Assembly (NCBI GenBank): GCA_036149055.1
Contig: JAYZQJ010000227.1
Location: 1-64,000 of the forward strand
Origin: Myxococcota bacterium
Lineage (GTDB): Bacteria > Myxococcota_A > Polyangia > Polyangiales > Sandaracinaceae
Direction: 5' to 3'
DNA: 64,000 nt
Every line of letters starts with the position of its first letter. The first letter of the stretch is position 1. Both the position numbers and the translations under genes were made by a program. This document shows positions 55,852 through 63,708 of this stretch, piece by piece. The notes beneath the pieces are model-generated. The model saw only the letters and a program-made list of their open reading frames with translations. It ran no database searches and was not told the DNA's origin.

Positions 55852-57567
55852 ATGCGCGCGTCCCATCTGATCTGCGTCCTGCTGCTGGCCGTCGGCTGCA
55901 GCGAATCCGTGACCCTCGAAGACGGGGGCCTGATGGACGGCGCCACGCCGGGCGACACCGGCGTCGTCGACGTCGACTCCAGCACCGAAGAAGACTCCGG
56001 CGTGTCCGACGACTCGGGCATCGAGGAGGACTCCGGCGTGATCGACGTCGACGCGGGGCCGCCGTGCGGCTCGGTCGGGCAGGACTGCTGCGACGGCGGC
56101 GAGTGCGACGAGGGCTTCTGCGACACGACGAGCAACACCTGCGCGGCCTGCGGCGGCGGCGGCGAGCCCTGTTGCCCCGGCGGCATGTGCACGGGCGGCT
56201 TCTGTGACGCCACCACCGACACCTGCACCGCCTGCGGCATGATCGGGGAGGCCTGCTGCCCAGGGAGCACGTGCCTCGACGGCTTCTGCGACGGCGCGAC
56301 CGACACCTGCAGCTCCTGCGGCGCGGCCGGCGAGAGCTGCTGCCCGGGCGACCTGTGCGACGCCGGGAACACCTGCAACCCGGCCGGGCTCTGCGTCGGC
56401 TGCGGCGACCCGGGCGAGGCGTGCTGCACGGACACCACCTGCAACGGCGGCGGCTGCTGCGTGTCGAACACCTGCGTCGGCGCGGGCTCGACCTGCGGCG
56501 GTGGGATCGGCGGCACCTGCACGGGCGGCAGCTGTGGGACCTGCGGCGGCGCCGGGCAGCCCTGCTGCGCGGGCGGCAGCTGCACGGCCTCCACCACGGT
56601 CTGCAACGGCGGCACCTGCGCGACCTGCGGCGGCGCCGGACAGCCCTGCTGCCCCGGCGACTCCTGCGGCGGCGGCCTGGTGTGCGGGGCGAGCGACATC
56701 TGCCAGCCCTGCGGCGGCGCCGGACAGCCCTGCTGCCCCGGCGACAGCTGCACCTCGGGCTGCTGCGATCCCAGCACCGACATCTGCGTGGCCGACGGCT
56801 CGGCCTGCGGCGTGGGCACCTGCACCGGCTCGACCTGCGTGGCCTGCGGCTATCCCGGCGAGGCCTGCTGCCCGGGCGACACCTGCCGCGGCGGCGGCTG
56901 CTGCGACGGCGGCTCCTGCCTCGCGGCCGGTGAGGCCCCGACCGGCACGAGCGGCATGGTCTGCGACCTCGGCGCGGTGGTCGCCTGCGGCGGCATGGGC
57001 GAGCCCTGCTGTGACGGCGCCGACTGCGCCGGCGGGTGCTGCCTCGAGGGGCTCTGCACCGCGGACGGCACGATGTGCGGCGGGCGCACCACCTGCTCGA
57101 TGGGGTCGTGCACGGTCGGCAGCTTCAGCTGCGGCGGCATGGGCGAGTCCTGCTGCGACTTCGGGATCACCGAGATGTGCACCTCCCCGGGCCTCGCCTG
57201 CGTCGGCGGCGGCAGCGGCTCCTGCCAGGCGTGCGGCGGCCCCGGTCAGCCGTGCTGCGATGGCCAGGCGTGCGACGGCGGCGGCTGCTGCGTGGGCAAT
57301 GTCTGCGTCGGTGACGGAGACAGCTGCGGCGGCGGCAGCCTCGGGGCCTGCTCCGCGGGCTCGTGTCAGGGCGGCACCTGCGGTCGACCGGGTCAGCCCT
57401 GCTGCCCGGGCATCGGGTGCAGCGGGCCGTTCGCCATCTGCGCCGGCGGCGCGGTGTGCGAGACCTGCGGCGGTGAAGGCGAGCCGTGCTGCTCGCCTCA
57501 CCAGCACTGCAACGGCTCGCTCGAGTGCACGTTCTCGGGCGGCGCGCAGGTCTGCGCTCGCCCTTGA
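55852..57567 (+). CDS. Extremely Cys/Gly-rich lipoprotein with CGxxGQPCC repeats
   Basis: Lipobox AVGC; more than ten CG..G[EQ].CC repeats; GGAGGGAG RBS. Confidence 0.85.
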   Translation: MRASHLICVLLLAVGCSESVTLEDGGLMDGATPGDTGVVDVDSSTEEDSGVSDDSGIEEDSGVIDVDAGPPCGSVGQDCCDGGECDEGFCDTTSNTCAACGGGGEPCCPGGMCTGGFCDATTDTCTACGMIGEACCPGSTCLDGFCDGATDTCSSCGAAGESCCPGDLCDAGNTCNPAGLCVGCGDPGEACCTDTTCNGGGCCVSNTCVGAGSTCGGGIGGTCTGGSCGTCGGAGQPCCAGGSCTASTTVCNGGTCATCGGAGQPCCPGDSCGGGLVCGASDICQPCGGAGQPCCPGDSCTSGCCDPSTDICVADGSACGVGTCTGSTCVACGYPGEACCPGDTCRGGGCCDGGSCLAAGEAPTGTSGMVCDLGAVVACGGMGEPCCDGADCAGGCCLEGLCTADGTMCGGRTTCSMGSCTVGSFSCGGMGESCCDFGITEMCTSPGLACVGGGSGSCQACGGPGQPCCDGQACDGGGCCVGNVCVGDGDSCGGGSLGACSAGSCQGGTCGRPGQPCCPGIGCSGPFAICAGGAVCETCGGEGEPCCSPHQHCNGSLECTFSGGAQVCARP

Positions 57568-58242: not shown

Positions 58243-59121
58243 ATGACGCGCTGGAGCTGGGTGATCGTGCTGGTGGTCGTGCTCGGGGGCTGCCGCCGGG
58301 AGAGCTCGGTGCGGCCCGACGCCACGGTCCCCGACGCGAGCGCCCTGGACGGGGGCGCGCTCGACGCCGGCCGCGCCGGGGACGCCGGAGCGGACGACGG
58401 GGGGAGCGACGCGGGCCCCGCAGAGGACGGCGGCCTCGGCGACGGAGGCGCGGGCGACGGAGGCGCGGGCGACGGAGGCGCCGGGGACGGCGGCCTCGAC
58501 GGAGGCCCGGTCTCGATGCCCTGCACGCCGACCGGCGCGTGCGATCCCTTCGACGCCTCGAGCTGCCCGTCGGGGCAGAAGTGCGCGGTCACCGACATGG
58601 GCACCGCCTGCGAGGACCTCACCGCCGCGCCGCCGCTCGGCGAAGGAGAGACGTGCACCCGCGACTCCCAGTGCGGCCCCGGCACCTGGTGCGTGAACTT
58701 CGGGGGCGGCTTCGAGTGCGCCGCGATGTGCGCGGCCGGGTCCATCGGCGACTGCGGGGCCGACGGAGCCTGCGTGGGCCGGGTCGGCGCCGAGATGTGC
58801 GTCCAGGTCTGCCGCCCGATCTCGCCGCGCTGCGACATCTACGCTCAGGACTGCGCCGACGCCGCCGACGCCTGCACCCTCGCGAGCCACCCGGAGACCG
58901 GAGAGCGCTACACGGGCTGCCGCCCCGCCGGCGCGCAGGGCCTGGGCGATCCCTGCGGCGGGGGCATGGGCACCTGCGACCGCGGGCTGATCTGCATCCG
59001 AGAGTCCGGGGCCGCGACGTGTCGCGAGGTCTGCCGCGAGCCCGGCCCCCCGAGCTGCAGCGTCGCGGGCGAGACCTGCACCGGCAACGCCCGCAGCTGG
59101 GGCGTCACCTACTGCCGGTGA
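58243..59121 (+). CDS. Cys-rich lipoprotein with DGG/DAG linker
   Basis: Lipobox LGGC; GDGGA repeats; two CD....C...C modules. Confidence 0.8.
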   Translation: MTRWSWVIVLVVVLGGCRRESSVRPDATVPDASALDGGALDAGRAGDAGADDGGSDAGPAEDGGLGDGGAGDGGAGDGGAGDGGLDGGPVSMPCTPTGACDPFDASSCPSGQKCAVTDMGTACEDLTAAPPLGEGETCTRDSQCGPGTWCVNFGGGFECAAMCAAGSIGDCGADGACVGRVGAEMCVQVCRPISPRCDIYAQDCADAADACTLASHPETGERYTGCRPAGAQGLGDPCGGGMGTCDRGLICIRESGAATCREVCREPGPPSCSVAGETCTGNARSWGVTYCR

Positions 59122-59141: not shown

Positions 59142-60230
59142 CTATTTGGGCTCGGGCTCGGGCGCGCCGAACGGACCCTCGAGGGTGGAGCGGCGGGAGC
59201 GCGGGGGCAGCGCCGCGGGCGGCGGCACGCTGGGCACCGACGTCTTCGGCGGATCCGCGAAGCCCAGCATGCTGAGGAGCAGCGGCTCGATGCCGCGGCG
59301 GCGGAGCTCCGCGCTCGGCGTGGCCTCGCGGCGCACGAGATCGAAGACCGTCGCGTCGTCGAGGCTCATCGCGACCAGCGGCGAGTGGGTGGTCACGACC
59401 CACTGCACCCGCGGATGGAGCTCGGCGAGCGCCGGCAGGAGCTCCCGCTGGAGGCGCGGGTCGAGGTTGGTCTCGGGGTGATCGACGAGGACCACGCCGC
59501 TCGGCTCGAGCGCGCCGTCGCCGCTCCGCAGCCGCGACGCCTCGACCCGCATCATCACCTCGGCCCAGAGCCAGACCGCGGTGGCGTGGCCGAGGGACAG
59601 CCCGTCGAAGCCGACCCGGCGCCCGTCGGGCAGGTCGAGCTGCACCCCGCCGGGATCGAACGCGAGCCGGATCTCGGGCAGGTGCAGCAGCTTGCGCAGC
59701 GCGCTCCGGACCCGGAGGAACCACGCCTCGTGCAGCTTCTCGCGGAAGGTGTCGCCGCTCTCCCGGGCGAGGGTCTGCTCGGTCTTGCGGTTGACGAGGA
59801 GCTGCCCGAGCCGCTCGGCCACGCTCGCCTCCGGCGGCTGCGGATCGGTGTCGAGCGGGGTCGGCCGCGGAGCCGGCAAGAAGCGCGGCGACCGCGGCAG
59901 CGCGAGGTGGGCGAGGACGAGCCGCCCGCTCGCGTGCGCGGAGGCGACGTCGTCGTCCGTCCACGACACGCGCACCGGCCGCCCGAGGTGAGCCAGCTTC
60001 AGCGCCCGGTCGCGGGCCTCGCCGATCGGCGCGTCCACCTTCTCGGCCGGGTGCGCGCGCCCCTCGAGCGCCGCGCGGAGCTCGTCGACGATGCCCGACA
60101 GCAGGCTGCTCTTGCCCGAGCCGCTGGCCCCCAGCAGCACCAGCGACCGGGGCGCGTCCTCGTCCAGCGCGATGATCAGGGGCGACAGGTGGCGCAGCGT
60201 GCGCGCTTCGATGCGTCTCAGCCAGGTCAT
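59142..60230 (-). CDS. AAA_21/ABC-type ATPase with atypical Walker B (DH)
   Basis: GASGSGKS; LSLG; VVLVDHPETNLDPRLQR; VVTTHSP. Confidence 0.8.
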   Translation of the reverse strand: MTWLRRIEARTLRHLSPLIIALDEDAPRSLVLLGASGSGKSSLLSGIVDELRAALEGRAHPAEKVDAPIGEARDRALKLAHLGRPVRVSWTDDDVASAHASGRLVLAHLALPRSPRFLPAPRPTPLDTDPQPPEASVAERLGQLLVNRKTEQTLARESGDTFREKLHEAWFLRVRSALRKLLHLPEIRLAFDPGGVQLDLPDGRRVGFDGLSLGHATAVWLWAEVMMRVEASRLRSGDGALEPSGVVLVDHPETNLDPRLQRELLPALAELHPRVQWVVTTHSPLVAMSLDDATVFDLVRREATPSAELRRRGIEPLLLSMLGFADPPKTSVPSVPPPAALPPRSRRSTLEGPFGAPEPEPK

Positions 60231-60294
60231 CGCGTGGCTCTCGTTTTCGCCCCTGGCTTCGCCCGGGTCAATGGCGGCTGCTACCTTGGCGCCG

Positions 60295-61632
60295 ATGAGC
60301 GACGAACGAGGCCCCGACCCGCTCAGCCCGACCGAGCGCGCCGCGCGCATGGACGCGCCGCGACCGAAGCGCGACCTGCCGATCGCGCCCGAGCCGCCGC
60401 CGGGCAAGCGTCACCTCCCCCTGCTCGCGCCGCGGCCGAGCGACGCGCGCTACCGGCCGATCTACGCGGTCTGGGAGATCACCCTCGCCTGCGATCTCGC
60501 CTGCCGTCACTGCGGCTCGCGCGCCGGCCGGGATCGACCCGGGCAGCTCTCCACCGAGGAGTGCCTCGATCTCGTCGACCAGATGGCCGACCTCGGGGTG
60601 CAGGAGGTCAGCCTGATCGGAGGCGAGGCTTACCTGCACGACGGCTGGGTCGACATCATCCGCCGCATCCGCGAGCGCGGCATGATCGCCCTGATGACCA
60701 CCGGCGGGCGCGGGGTGACGAAGGAGCGCGCCCGGGCGGCCGCCGACGCGGGCCTCCAGAGCGTCAGCGTCTCGGTGGACGGCGTCGAAGCGACGCACGA
60801 TCGATTGCGGGGCGTGAAGGGCAGCCACCGCGCGGCCTTCGAGGCGTTCGACAACCTCCGAGAGGTCGGCATCAAGGTCAGCGCCAACACGCAGATCAAC
60901 CGGCTGAGCATGCCCGAGATGCCGCGGGTGCTCGACGACATCATCGCCGCCGGGATCCACTCCTGGCAGATCCAGCTCACCGTGGCGATGGGGCGCGCGG
61001 CCGACGAGCCGGAGATCCTGCTCCAGCCCTACGATCTCCTCGACCTCTTCCCGATGCTGGCCGACCTCAAGGCGCGCTGCGACGCGGCGAAGGTGCGGCT
61101 CTGGCCGGGGAACAACATCGGCTACTTCGGCCCCTACGAGTCGACGCTGCGCGGGACGATGCCGCGCGGGCACATGGCGTCCTGCGGCGCGGGCCGGGTC
61201 ACCCTCGGCGTCGAGGCGGACGGGGCGATCAAGGGCTGCCCCTCGCTGCCCACCGAGGCGTGGACGGGCGGGAACATCCGGGACGCCTCGCTGAAGGACA
61301 TCTGGGAGCGCTCGGCGCCGCTCCGCTACACCCGCGACCGCACGGTCGAGGATCTCTGGGGCTACTGCCGCACCTGCTACTACGCCGACGTCTGCCGCGC
61401 GGGCTGCACGTGGACCAGCTTCGTGCTCTTCGGCAAGGCGGGGAACAACCCCTACTGCCACCACCGCGCGCTCGAGCGGCAGCGCGAGGGCAAGCGCGAG
61501 CGGGTCGTCCGCAAGGCCGAGGCGCCCGGCCTGCCCTTCGACCACGGCGAGTTCGAGATCGTGCTCGAGGACGCACCTCGAACCGACGAGCCACCTGCGC
61601 TAGCATCGTCGCCGGGAGGGACCGGAACGTGA
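60295..61632 (+). CDS. Radical SAM/SPASM peptide-modifying enzyme, PlpX splicease-like
   Basis: YAVWEITLACDLACRHCGSRAG (CxxxCxxC), IGGEA; SPASM CGAG..ADGAIKGCPSLP..CRTC..CRAGCTW..NNPYCHHRAL. Confidence 0.9.
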   Translation: MSDERGPDPLSPTERAARMDAPRPKRDLPIAPEPPPGKRHLPLLAPRPSDARYRPIYAVWEITLACDLACRHCGSRAGRDRPGQLSTEECLDLVDQMADLGVQEVSLIGGEAYLHDGWVDIIRRIRERGMIALMTTGGRGVTKERARAAADAGLQSVSVSVDGVEATHDRLRGVKGSHRAAFEAFDNLREVGIKVSANTQINRLSMPEMPRVLDDIIAAGIHSWQIQLTVAMGRAADEPEILLQPYDLLDLFPMLADLKARCDAAKVRLWPGNNIGYFGPYESTLRGTMPRGHMASCGAGRVTLGVEADGAIKGCPSLPTEAWTGGNIRDASLKDIWERSAPLRYTRDRTVEDLWGYCRTCYYADVCRAGCTWTSFVLFGKAGNNPYCHHRALERQREGKRERVVRKAEAPGLPFDHGEFEIVLEDAPRTDEPPALASSPGGTGT

Positions 61633-61979
61633 GTCACCTGCTTCCTTGCGACGGCTGCGACCGTCACGTGCGGGCCGACGAGCCCACGTGCCCGTTCTGC
61701 GGAGACAGCCTCCGCCACCGCGGCGCGCCGCAGCTCCCCGGGGCTCGCCTGGGACGCGCCGCGACCTTCGCGTTCGGCGCCGCCCTCGCGGCCGCGACCG
61801 CGAGCGGCTGCGGCGAGAGCCACGACCGGACGGACGGCGGTGAGCCGCCCGCCGACGCCGCCGAGCCGCCCGCCGACGCGGGGATCGAGCGAGACTCGGG
61901 CACGGTCGCGCCGCCGTACGGCACGCCGCCCGACGACGGAGGCTTCGCCCCCTTGTACGGTGGGGCGCCCGAAGAGTAG
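61629..61979 (+). CDS. Candidate rSAM substrate 1: CxxC/CPFC leader, lipobox, two PxYG motifs (116 aa)
   Basis: GTG overlaps the rSAM TGA, GGAGG RBS; SHLLPCDGCDRHVRADEPTCPFCG..RLGRAATFAFGAALAAATASGC..APPYGTPP..APLYGGAPEE; clear paralog of the next gene. Confidence 0.85.
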   Translation: MSHLLPCDGCDRHVRADEPTCPFCGDSLRHRGAPQLPGARLGRAATFAFGAALAAATASGCGESHDRTDGGEPPADAAEPPADAGIERDSGTVAPPYGTPPDDGGFAPLYGGAPEE

Positions 61980-61990
61980 GAGACACGACC

Positions 61991-62521
61991 ATGAGCTTGC
62001 TTCCTTGTCCGGGCTGCGACCGCCACGTGCGCGCGGCCGAGAGCACCTGCCCCTTCTGCGGAGAGGTCCTGCCGATGTCGCTGCGCAGCCGCGCGGCGCC
62101 GGTCCCCACCCGCCGGCTCGGGCGCGCGGCGACCTTCGCCTTCGGCGCCGCCCTCGCGGCGAGCGCCTGCGGCGGAGAAGTCACCCCGGAGGACTCGGGC
62201 GTGCAGCAGGACTCGGGCGCTACGCCGTCGGACGGCGGCGGGGCGGACGGCGGCGGTGACGTCGACTCCGGCGCGACCCCGGACCCGGACTCCGGCGTGG
62301 TGGCCGACGCGGGCTCCGCCCCGGAGGACGCGGGGACCGAGAGCGACTCCGGCGTCGAGACCGACGCGGGCGCGGCGCCGACCGACGCGGGCGGCGTGGT
62401 CCCGGCGTACGGCGGCCCGATGCCGATCGACGGCGGCCTGACCCGGCGCGACGGTGGCCTCTCCCGGCGCGATGGTGGTGGAGTGATGCCCCTCTACGGC
62501 AGCCCGCCCCCCAGCGAATGA
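61991..62521 (+). CDS. Candidate rSAM substrate 2: CxxC/CPFC leader, lipobox, DSG/DAG linker, two PxYG motifs
   Basis: AGGAG RBS; SLLPCPGCDRHVRAAESTCPFCG..RRLGRAATFAFGAALAASAC..VPAYGGPMP..MPLYGSPPP. Confidence 0.9.
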   Translation: MSLLPCPGCDRHVRAAESTCPFCGEVLPMSLRSRAAPVPTRRLGRAATFAFGAALAASACGGEVTPEDSGVQQDSGATPSDGGGADGGGDVDSGATPDPDSGVVADAGSAPEDAGTESDSGVETDAGAAPTDAGGVVPAYGGPMPIDGGLTRRDGGLSRRDGGGVMPLYGSPPPSE

Positions 62522-63708
62522 GGCGACTGCTCTTCGCGCTGGCGCTCCTCGGCTGCGACGGCGCCACGGTCGCCGACGGCGGGCTCGCGATCGACGGCGG
62601 CCCGGAGGTCGTGGACGCCGGTCGCGCCGACGGCGGCGTCGACGCGGGCGGCGCGACCGGAGACGCGGGCGTCGACGCGGGCGCATCGGACGACGCGGGG
62701 CGCGACGACGCGGGCGCGCCCGACGCCGGGCCGAGCGGGCCGCTCCAGCTCTACGTGGCGCCCGACGGCGACGACACCCGCGACGGCCTCTCGGAGGCGA
62801 CCGCGGTGCTCAGCCTCGGCCGGGTGCACGAGCTCCTCGAGGCGCTCCGGCCCGAGCGGGACGTCGAGGTGCGGATCGCGCCGGGCACCTACCACGGGCA
62901 GACCGTGAGCTGGCGCTATCACCACCCGGAGCGCGAGATCCGCTTCATGCCGCTCGGCGACGAGCGCGACCGCCCGGTCTTCGACGGCTGCCTCGCCGAC
63001 GGCAGCTGCCCCGGCGGGACGTGGCTGCGGCTGCGGGTCTCGAGCGGCGCCCGGACGAACCTGCACTTCCGCTACCTCCGGGTGCAGCGCTACCAGACCG
63101 CGATCAGCCTCGACGGCAACCGCAACGATCCGGCGGCGTCGAACGGGGGCAACACGATCTTCGGCTGCTACTTCGACCGGATCGGCAACGTGTTCGCGCC
63201 GTCCCTCGACCCGTCGACCGCCGCGGTGCGCCTCGTCAACAGCGACGACAACCGCATCGAGAACAACCACTTCGTCGACGTCGTGAACACCCGGAGCGGC
63301 GGCCTGATCCACGCCCTCTACGTCGCCCACCTCAGCGACCGGAACACGATCGCGCGCAACCGCTTCCTCCGGAGCACGGGCGACCCGGTGCGCCTGCGCG
63401 ACTACTCCAACGACAACGTCATCACCGACAACCGCTTCATCCGGGTCGGGACCCACGCCGGCTACACCGACTGGTACTGCGACCACGACGCGCGGACCGA
63501 CTGCACCAAGCCCACGCCCGAGTGTCCGAGCTGGAACAACCAGTTCCGCGACAACCTGCTCGATGGCGACTGGACCTGCGGCGCGCTCGGCACCTTCCAC
63601 TACTTCCAGGACGACACCACCACCGGCTGCAGCCCACCGAGCGCCGGCGCCCGGCGCCTGAGGACGAGCGGCAACGAGTCGACCGCCGCGCCGTGCTCCA
63701 TGGAGTGA
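62518..63708 (+). CDS. Lipoprotein with right-handed parallel beta-helix domain
   Basis: Lipobox LLGC; YVAPDGDD..DG, IAPGTY; repeated N.I.NN.F turns; ATGA overlap with substrate 2. Confidence 0.8.
   Translation: MRRLLFALALLGCDGATVADGGLAIDGGPEVVDAGRADGGVDAGGATGDAGVDAGASDDAGRDDAGAPDAGPSGPLQLYVAPDGDDTRDGLSEATAVLSLGRVHELLEALRPERDVEVRIAPGTYHGQTVSWRYHHPEREIRFMPLGDERDRPVFDGCLADGSCPGGTWLRLRVSSGARTNLHFRYLRVQRYQTAISLDGNRNDPAASNGGNTIFGCYFDRIGNVFAPSLDPSTAAVRLVNSDDNRIENNHFVDVVNTRSGGLIHALYVAHLSDRNTIARNRFLRSTGDPVRLRDYSNDNVITDNRFIRVGTHAGYTDWYCDHDARTDCTKPTPECPSWNNQFRDNLLDGDWTCGALGTFHYFQDDTTTGCSPPSAGARRLRTSGNESTAAPCSME

Follow-up and report, generated by a model that had tools for sequence, protein, structure and literature searches.

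In a 64,000-nucleotide stretch of DNA from a Myxococcota bacterium of the Sandaracinaceae (assembly GCA_036149055.1, contig JAYZQJ010000227.1, positions 1 to 64,000; the whole stretch is called the window below), two consecutive genes, named precursor A and precursor B here, follow a gene for a splicease-type radical S-adenosylmethionine (rSAM) enzyme. We propose that both genes encode substrates of this adjacent enzyme and that their first ~60 residues form a predicted composite leader, a reading to which we assign a probability of roughly 0.55. The two proteins share a common order of parts, in which a four-cysteine module (CxxCxRHV..CPFC) is followed by a linker of 15-21 residues, the segment RLGRAATFAFGAALAA and a lipobox Cys, and their acidic, disordered tails, in which Gly, Ala, Pro and Asp are abundant, carry two P-x-YG sites apiece (in the contexts APPYG and APLYG in precursor A, and VPAYG and MPLYG in precursor B). 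The leader is tied exclusively to xYG tails and splicease genes, and a model of the complex supports its binding to the enzyme. The feature span analysed, 61629..62170, runs from the start codon of precursor A, a GTG overlapping the rSAM stop codon as GTGA, to the lipobox Cys codon of precursor B. The parts of the locus are given below, with their basis in parentheses.

60295..61632, + strand: rSAM/SPASM enzyme of the splicease (PlpX-like) kind, 445 amino acids (aa) (NCBIfam, Pfam, public gene call)
61126..61146, + strand: loop FGPYEST of the rSAM enzyme, residues 278-284, predicted docking surface for the ribbon (complex model)
61629..61979, + strand: precursor A, 116 aa (open reading frame, ORF; AlphaFold2, AF2, model)
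61647..61700, + strand: zinc-ribbon module of precursor A, C7..C24, CDGCDRHVRADEPTCPFC (alignment, AF2)
61746..61811, + strand: n-region, h-region and lipobox Cys of precursor A, RLGRAATFAFGAALAAATASG-C61 (sequence; modelled helix)
61809-61811, + strand: lipobox-like Cys of precursor A, C61 in ASGC (sequence)
61914..61961, + strand: predicted splice sites of precursor A, PYG at 61914-61922 and LYG at 61953-61961 (sequence)
61991..62521, + strand: precursor B, 176 aa, 46% identical to precursor A (ORF)
62006..62059, + strand: zinc-ribbon module of precursor B, residues 6-23 (C6..C23), CPGCDRHVRAAESTCPFC (alignment)
62114..62170, + strand: n-region, h-region and lipobox Cys of precursor B, RLGRAATFAFGAALAASA-C60 (sequence)
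62168-62170, + strand: lipobox-like Cys of precursor B, C60 in ASAC (sequence)
62405..62500, + strand: predicted splice sites of precursor B, AYG at 62405-62413 and LYG at 62492-62500 (sequence)

The precursor family and its leader

A search with precursor B as the query gave 132 matches at an expectation value (E) of <=0.01, and the 122 sequences analysed consist of the 120 of these 132 matches that were listed together with both window proteins, one match being precursor A itself. Named matches come from Sandaracinaceae, Sandaracinus amylolyticus and other Myxococcota, and bear the label 'hypothetical' or, in one case, 'zinc ribbon domain-containing'; no NCBIfam model was reached above its cut-off by the precursors. 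The full ribbon motif CxxCxRH[VILAT]..CPFC is present in 117/122 sequences, the remaining 5 being gene calls that start within the ribbon, and a Cys follows the hydrophobic stretch in 122/122, with a PROSITE-like lipobox pattern being fitted by 114/122. The arrangement reported for both precursors in a preliminary description of this DNA, with the four-Cys module preceding an Arg-rich n-region, an h-region and a lipobox, is thus kept across the family. That description had also taken the module to be the most conserved part of the two paralogues, which does not hold for the pair itself, the n/h-region being identical at 16/16 positions and the ribbon at 19/24. Family-wide, both are conserved, as the mean majority-residue fraction is 0.75 in the ribbon and 0.69 in the n- plus h-region, with 0.50 in the tail and 0.47 in the linker. 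In an 87-row alignment, columns C7, C10, R12, H13, C21, P22, F23, C24, R43 and C61 are invariant, R40 and R43 are conserved as the charge of the n-region, and Y110 and G111 of precursor A are conserved at >=90%.

In the AF2 model of precursor A, residues 1-60 have a predicted local distance difference test (pLDDT) score of 86-95, with strands at residues 4-6 and 13-15 (pLDDT 92-95) and a helix at residues 43-58, and the tail (pLDDT 61-69) is without structure. Together, the motif and the modelled strands show what defines a zinc ribbon, namely two CxxC knuckles on beta-hairpins. A Foldseek search of the model against the PDB gave nothing at E<=0.001, its weak and all non-significant rows consisting of small zinc fingers only, and the best curated matches of the ribbon, UPF0547 (18.8 bits against 29) and a rubrerythrin-like family (17.9 bits against 32), stayed below their cut-offs.

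The tails of the 122 sequences contain no YG motif in 3 cases, one in 12, two in 41, three in 41, four in 20, five in 3 and six in 2, and ahead of YG, position X is occupied by L in 141 cases, P in 48, A in 46, V in 46, M in 17, I in 11 and R in 9. Mature parts are 34-153 aa long and consist of 25% G, 15% A, 13% P and 13% D. Three members from the exhaustive profile search described below (P0285, P0372 and P0374) have IYSAAP or IYAAAP in place of xYGxPP, and may be natural splice-motif variants or else non-substrates.

Bacterial lipoproteins are matured by Lgt, LspA and Lnt. As in ordinary lipoproteins, the n-region of the precursors is positively charged, the h-region is short, and an invariant Cys is preceded by small residues at -1 and -2. 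The distance from the last charged residue to this Cys is 12-21 residues in 116/117 sequences (modes 14, 17 and 18), and an extra Cys in the mature part is found in only 4/122. The genome encodes LspA twice, as two tandem PF01252 (Peptidase_A8) matches above cut-off at contig C206:28682-29712. Unlike in ordinary lipoproteins, a folded domain of ~40 residues precedes the n-region and the Cys lies near position 60, and unlike in ordinary signal peptides, the sequence of the h-region is conserved family-wide. Judging from the invariant Cys, the length of the h-region and the presence of LspA in the genome, lipidation and LspA cleavage at this Cys would remove ribbon and signal together, and it is by this sequence logic that removal by signal peptidase II, as had been suggested in the preliminary description, is supported. 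Export by the twin-arginine translocation (Tat) pathway was considered and rejected; R40 and R43 are spaced as R-x-x-R, the residue before R40 is variable, and the twin-arginine motif is not matched at its hydrophobic positions.

A search of the genome for further proteins with the motif, as had been proposed, led to a single set of ORFs by two approaches. Motif scans and a leader-only hidden Markov model (HMM) agree on the same eight ORFs, all with xYG tails, of which two are in the window, three on contig C208 and three unlinked (on contigs C4, C128 and C199), and beyond these eight neither approach gave a credible leader match in this genome. Seven of the eight were found by the HMM at E below 1e-4, while the third C208 precursor reached only E 0.028, which lies below the inclusion threshold of HMMER. 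A leader-only profile built from 59 leaders of the loci was then searched exhaustively over 1.84 billion cluster representatives, giving 4061 representatives at E<=0.001, of which 1234 reach E<=1e-10. Each of the best 150 has a length of 77-268 aa and carries the leader at its N-terminus or close to it, and 136 of the best 150 are new relative to the earlier family set. Among the new representatives, ribbon and Cys are both present in 133/136 and a strict lipobox pattern is fitted by 110/136; at least one YG occurs in 123/133 of those with ribbon and Cys, and 300/321 of their tail tyrosines are within YG. The ten tails without YG include several truncated or frame-shifted gene calls, and three have IYS or IYA. 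A word-based search found leader residues 1-62 on no protein of 309-2000 aa, which is weak evidence.

The enzyme, its clades and the complex model

The enzyme has TIGR04103 (the PlpX-type 'nif11-class peptide radical SAM maturase 3') as its top NCBIfam match, with 528.7 bits, and is splicease-like yet outside both curated equivalogs, TIGR04103 and TIGR03913 (the 'GDL motif peptide-associated maturase'). The Pfam domains Radical_SAM (84.2 bits) and SPASM (31.1 bits) both match above cut-off, the CxxxCxxC motif reads CDLACRHC (residues 66-73), and the public gene call is of 445 aa and 100% identical. One close homologue carries the NCBI name GDL-motif maturase. Against TIGR04133 ('rSAM_w_lipo') the enzyme scores 155.6 bits with a cut-off of 425; like the window enzyme, the members of TIGR04133 and TIGR03913 are SPASM enzymes, and these families are named for a neighbouring lipoprotein or short peptide. 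There is no solved splicease structure, the nearest solved chains being SkfB and PqqE. An N-terminal extension of ~50 residues (60295-60450, + strand) is Pro-rich, kept across clade 1 and different in clade 2 (the clades are defined below), with L28, P29, P32, R39, L41, P42, R47, D50 and P55 as examples of its conserved residues.

The lack of a PqqD-type RiPP recognition element (RRE; RiPP, a peptide made on the ribosome and modified after translation) next to the rSAM gene, as noted in the preliminary description, was confirmed, since Pfam and NCBIfam scans of the neighbouring ORFs in the window found no PqqD/RRE, and PF05402 (PqqD) is matched only once in the whole genome, on contig C7, where an unrelated rSAM enzyme of 25% identity is encoded alongside. 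Nor did a fused RRE emerge from a Pfam scan of the first 75 residues of the enzyme, which matched no family at all at E<=1. This absence calls for no special explanation. According to Richter et al. 2024 (PMC11414181), PlpX and PcpX require a Y protein as activator, and hundreds of spliceotide pathways outside cyanobacteria are all without Y protein, a leader helix standing in for it there, so that the window system is ordinary in this respect.

Matches to precursor B occur in 43/61 related genomes, including 29/31 of the same family, and a single genome holds as many as 21 copies; the splicease query matches in 42/61. Both genes are present in 41 of these genomes, only the precursor in 2 (G013 and G051), only the rSAM gene in 1 (G048) and neither in 17; the 61 genomes, one of which (G023) is unpublished, are kin, and hence the tallies are no independent test. 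In 22/30 precursor-centred loci (with 1.5 kb flanks) the rSAM gene is directly upstream on the same strand with one to four tandem precursors behind it, and the other 8/30 are short contigs, longer arrays or unlinked copies. The enzymes fall into three clades, each with its own version of the leader:

Clade 1 (window type): 67-91% identity to the window enzyme; precursors downstream; leader RHVR / RLGRAA; 22/23 loci
Clade 2 (C208 type): ~55% identity; precursors upstream; ribbon CRxHI..ERPS..CPFCGAN and signal GR[SG]G.LA..LLAF..AC; 7/7 loci
Clade 3: 47-52% identity; one precursor, directly upstream; ribbon CxxCxxF[VL]PP..CPxC and signal ending in ACYG; 14/15 loci

In clade 1 the leader is missing only from L051, a contig of 2960 bases in the unpublished genome G023. 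Given that the ribbon-plus-lipobox layout is kept in the three clades while their sequences diverge, the layout argues for a function. In clade 3, the X of the sole xYG site is the lipobox Cys itself.

A second splicease cluster lies in the same genome at contig C208:4206-6923 (locus L031:722-3427), with three ribbon and lipobox precursors upstream of its enzyme. This paralogue is 57% identical to the window enzyme, and its precursors bear a different leader type. Just ahead of them is an ORF with a HExxH motif (L031:29-706), which has weak Pfam met-zincin/matrixin matches (E ~0.1). The unlinked copies, all on the minus strand (C4 ~17670, C128 ~142938 and C199 ~16633), carry a clade-1-type ribbon and PPYG or AYG sites. 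In the clade-3 loci (L065-L079), the signal peptide of the single upstream precursor ends in an invariant ACYG, and most mature parts have a Cys-rich DLDGDGYC..DQNCDGVDG module, one scanned example of which matches Pfam MopE with 29.9 bits.

The complex of enzyme and leader, the modelling of which the preliminary description had proposed, was folded with one zinc ion from the enzyme (53-row alignment) and leader residues 1-62 (87-row alignment). The median interaction prediction score from aligned errors (ipSAE) was 0.75 (runs 0.75, 0.58 and 0.78), compared with 0.00 for the best of 3 controls, a mark attained by 116/157 solved complexes and 2/215 mismatched pairs, and contact agreement between runs was >=52%. 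The confident leader contacts are residues 2, 4, 6, 10-13 and 22, that is, the first knuckle (C10-R12-H13) with invariant R12 and H13, plus P22, while those of the enzyme are residues 278-284 (FGPYEST), R291, H293, Y362, Y363, D365, V366 and H390, with F278, G279, P280 and E282 being invariant in 53 clade-1 enzymes. The interface positions vary between clades and are steady within each, with GPYE replaced by SHFE or GPEE, YY by PY or AF, and CHH standing against CIH and CHF. Because no solved complex is similar to this model, the closest being SkfB and PqqE, it is unlikely that a memorised structure accounts for the result. Combined with the xYG-only cargo and the clade-specific leaders, the model lends in silico support to the earlier suggestion that the ribbon is a recognition element.

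Proposed route and competing explanations

We suggest the following route. The zinc ribbon would fold in the cytoplasm and, as indicated by the model and by conservation, likely docks via its R-H knuckle on the FGPYES loop and the SPASM region of the enzyme, thereby taking the place that is held by an RRE/Y protein or a leader helix in other spliceases. As expected from its family membership, the enzyme would next act on the P-x-Y-G sites in the tail, excising tyramine and leaving alpha-keto-beta-amino residues. Following Sec export and lipidation at the invariant Cys, both suggested by the lipobox, a cut by LspA would remove ribbon and signal peptide jointly, and therefore no dedicated leader peptidase or transporter would be needed. 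The expected product is a lipid-anchored, acidic, disordered envelope protein with 1-6 keto-amide groups, which may act as a protease inhibitor by analogy with published spliceotides. SPASM enzymes are known to modify exported proteins before export, as in the case of the anaerobic sulfatase maturase and of QhpD acting on QhpC. These resemble the proposed route in that a cytoplasmic SPASM enzyme acts on an envelope-destined protein substrate, and differ in chemistry and recognition, neither having a zinc-ribbon leader or a lipid anchor.

A wider version of this proposal, which we hold tentatively and at somewhat below even odds, is that the folded zinc ribbon represents a new kind of leader that docks on the SPASM side and replaces the RRE, that LspA serves as the leader peptidase, that myxobacteria contain families of lipid-anchored, spliced keto-amide envelope proteins, and that a sister clade has the anchor Cys itself as its splice site. 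If true, RiPP-type recognition would need neither an RRE nor a leader helix, as a metal-bound knuckle of 25 residues would suffice, and this compact handle would in principle be portable for protein splicing tools. RiPP-like backbone editing would also be joined to the general lipoprotein pathway, with export, leader removal and anchoring obtained at no cost. The results point to a large unnamed class of myxobacterial envelope proteins with reactive keto-amide groups, which may be protease inhibitors on the surface of these predatory, enzyme-secreting bacteria.

Splicease systems number 27 characterised and 939 predicted ones in 189 genera, after Scott et al. 2022 (PMC10533398, PMC10849128). 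The PlpX/PlpY/PlpA and PcpXYA systems of Pleurocapsa (type I; Morinaka et al. 2018 via PMC11414181 and PMC11002830) contain enzymes of the same rSAM/SPASM family, and like theirs, the window substrates are encoded beside the enzyme and have xYG motifs with a hydrophobic X. Unlike these type I systems, of which the Y protein is a defining part, the window system is without a Y/RRE protein, and its leader consists of a zinc ribbon and a lipoprotein-type signal peptide in place of a Nif11 or nitrile hydratase leader peptide (NHLP) leader. Window-type substrates also differ by being disordered, 77-268 aa long, with 1-6 sites and often in tandem arrays, and the window-type locus has no conserved transporter or peptidase gene and an enzyme under the family cut-off. 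The RhaX/RhaA system of Rheinheimera (type II; PMC11414181, PMC11626197) resembles the window system in having two components, no Y protein and a leader element predicted to bind the enzyme; in binary RhaXA the leader helix is predicted in the Y site and activates the enzyme when fused to it (PMC11414181). Unlike the alpha-helical activator of RhaA, a small peptide without a lipobox, the window leader makes its confident contacts through a zinc knuckle, and its only helix is the h-region of the signal peptide. In our literature search, neither zinc-ribbon leaders nor lipoprotein spliceotides were the subject of any paper; the survey of Scott et al. 2022 was outside that search and may cover this layout.

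Several observations weigh against the proposal that the two proteins are substrates with a composite leader. Three precursor copies of this genome adjoin no rSAM gene, and because no splicease gene is present on contigs C4, C128 and C199, they would need modification in trans. The lipobox Cys is unusually late, at position 58-70 in most members (family median 63). Common lipoprotein predictors expect the Cys within roughly the first 35-40 residues, a rule that neither C61 of precursor A nor C60 of precursor B follows. The ipSAE mark of the complex is only roughly calibrated here because of the use of own alignments and the co-folded zinc ion, and pLDDT of the partner is only 54-60. The helix of the h-region stays outside the confident contacts despite its strong conservation, and may have a second role in enzyme binding or timing. 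Clade-specific co-variation of leader and enzyme is suggestive, and is drawn from only three clades of related organisms. The enzyme scores under both curated cut-offs (528.7 vs 725 bits for TIGR04103 and 476.4 vs 591.75 for TIGR03913). Finally, the activator of published binary spliceases is a leader helix and not a zinc ribbon (PMC11414181).

As a competing explanation, the ribbon might mainly serve as a timing or retention plug, folding fast in the cytoplasm ahead of the signal peptide and slowing Sec targeting until the enzyme has completed its work, while the h-region helix or the xYG core would be what the enzyme recognises, an idea that is compatible with docking and that we consider unlikely as the main function. 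Radical SAM chemistry is cytoplasmic, so the enzyme must act before export, and N-terminal extensions of autotransporter signal peptides are known to slow export. The n/h-region is nearly as conserved as the ribbon (0.69 vs 0.75), a degree of conservation not usually seen in signal peptides that suggests an additional role, and PlpXY recognises the core tag without a leader (PMC11414181). However, in the model, whose controls are at 0.00, the invariant R-H knuckle is seated on conserved residues of the enzyme, and invariant surface residues R12 and H13 as well as clade-specific versions would be superfluous for a mere plug. Alternatively, the hydrophobic stretch could be an uncleaved signal anchor, giving a bitopic protein with a cytoplasmic ribbon, an outside tail and a Cys that does not serve lipidation. 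Zinc ribbons with a membrane helix behind them are common in bacteria, the ribbon has weak Pfam zinc-ribbon matches and the Cys is distant from the N-terminus; moreover, in clade 3 it is the X of the only xYG, and could be conserved for splicing. We nevertheless regard this topology as improbable. Counted from the last charge, the stretch is only short (modes of 14, 17 and 18 residues), and 114/122 sequences fit the lipobox pattern, in which small residues occupy -1 and -2. The mature part is otherwise nearly Cys-free (4/122 have one), and clades 1 and 2 have an invariant Cys at a distance of 30-100 residues from any YG.

It is still less probable that the ribbon serves a partner other than the enzyme, such as a chaperone, a Sec part or a regulator, or that the released fragment is a signal. 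This would fit with the orphan copies that retain the ribbon away from an rSAM gene, and with the weak structural neighbours of the ribbon, the protein-binding NZF/RanBP2 zinc fingers (root-mean-square deviation ~1 A over 26 residues, none significant). By contrast, no third gene is conserved, with other ORF clusters occurring in <=11/21 extended loci; the leader is on no other cargo in the genome scans, the word search and the best 150 of 1234 representatives; and the model favours the enzyme as the partner. Binding of iron by the four Cys in a rubredoxin-like manner, for electron supply to the enzyme, has very little probability in our estimation. The second knuckle, CPFCG, fits the rubredoxin-type CPxCG, and a weak NCBIfam rubrerythrin-like match exists (E 0.0019), which at 17.9 bits is below its cut-off of 32. 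The spacing of 10 residues between the knuckles is typical of zinc ribbons, and rubredoxin potentials are far too high for reduction of a radical SAM cluster. Docking of the zinc ribbon on the adjacent splicease is the reading that we prefer.

Neighbouring genes

Twenty-one loci were extended by ~7 kb per side, and their ORFs were clustered, with those under 110 aa and those of low complexity (precursors included) left out of the clustering. The enzyme alone is common to all 21 extended loci and the next ORF cluster to 11, and no dedicated peptidase or transporter gene conserved in the locus was found among the clustered ORFs. Directly behind precursor B, positions 62518-63708 (+ strand) encode a lipoprotein whose domain is of the right-handed beta-helix or NosD-like type, its ATG overlapping the precursor B stop codon; it was rejected as a component of the system, having no counterpart at the other 29 loci. 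The AAA ATPase upstream of the enzyme (59142-60407, minus strand) is likewise not conserved, with no match at the 29 other short-flank loci, and an ORF cluster with an N-terminus resembling it occurs in only 5/21 extended loci.

The 11-locus cluster (L083, L086-L089, L092-L094, L096, L098 and L099) is an unannotated ORF of ~260-440 aa directly upstream of the clade-1 enzyme. The example printed has a signal peptide and a C-terminal ..GYRF, and resembles an outer-membrane barrel. The Pfam scan of shared neighbour clusters covered this cluster only, and three examples scanned gave no match. A homologue in the genome of the window, 37% identical, is unlinked (C279:94248-94886). Farther upstream in the window, positions 55852-57567 and 58243-59121 (both + strand) encode two proteins that are rich in Cys, secreted or lipoprotein-like, and without a match to any family above cut-off; the product of the former, with 571 aa, is made of repeated GxPCCxG..C units.

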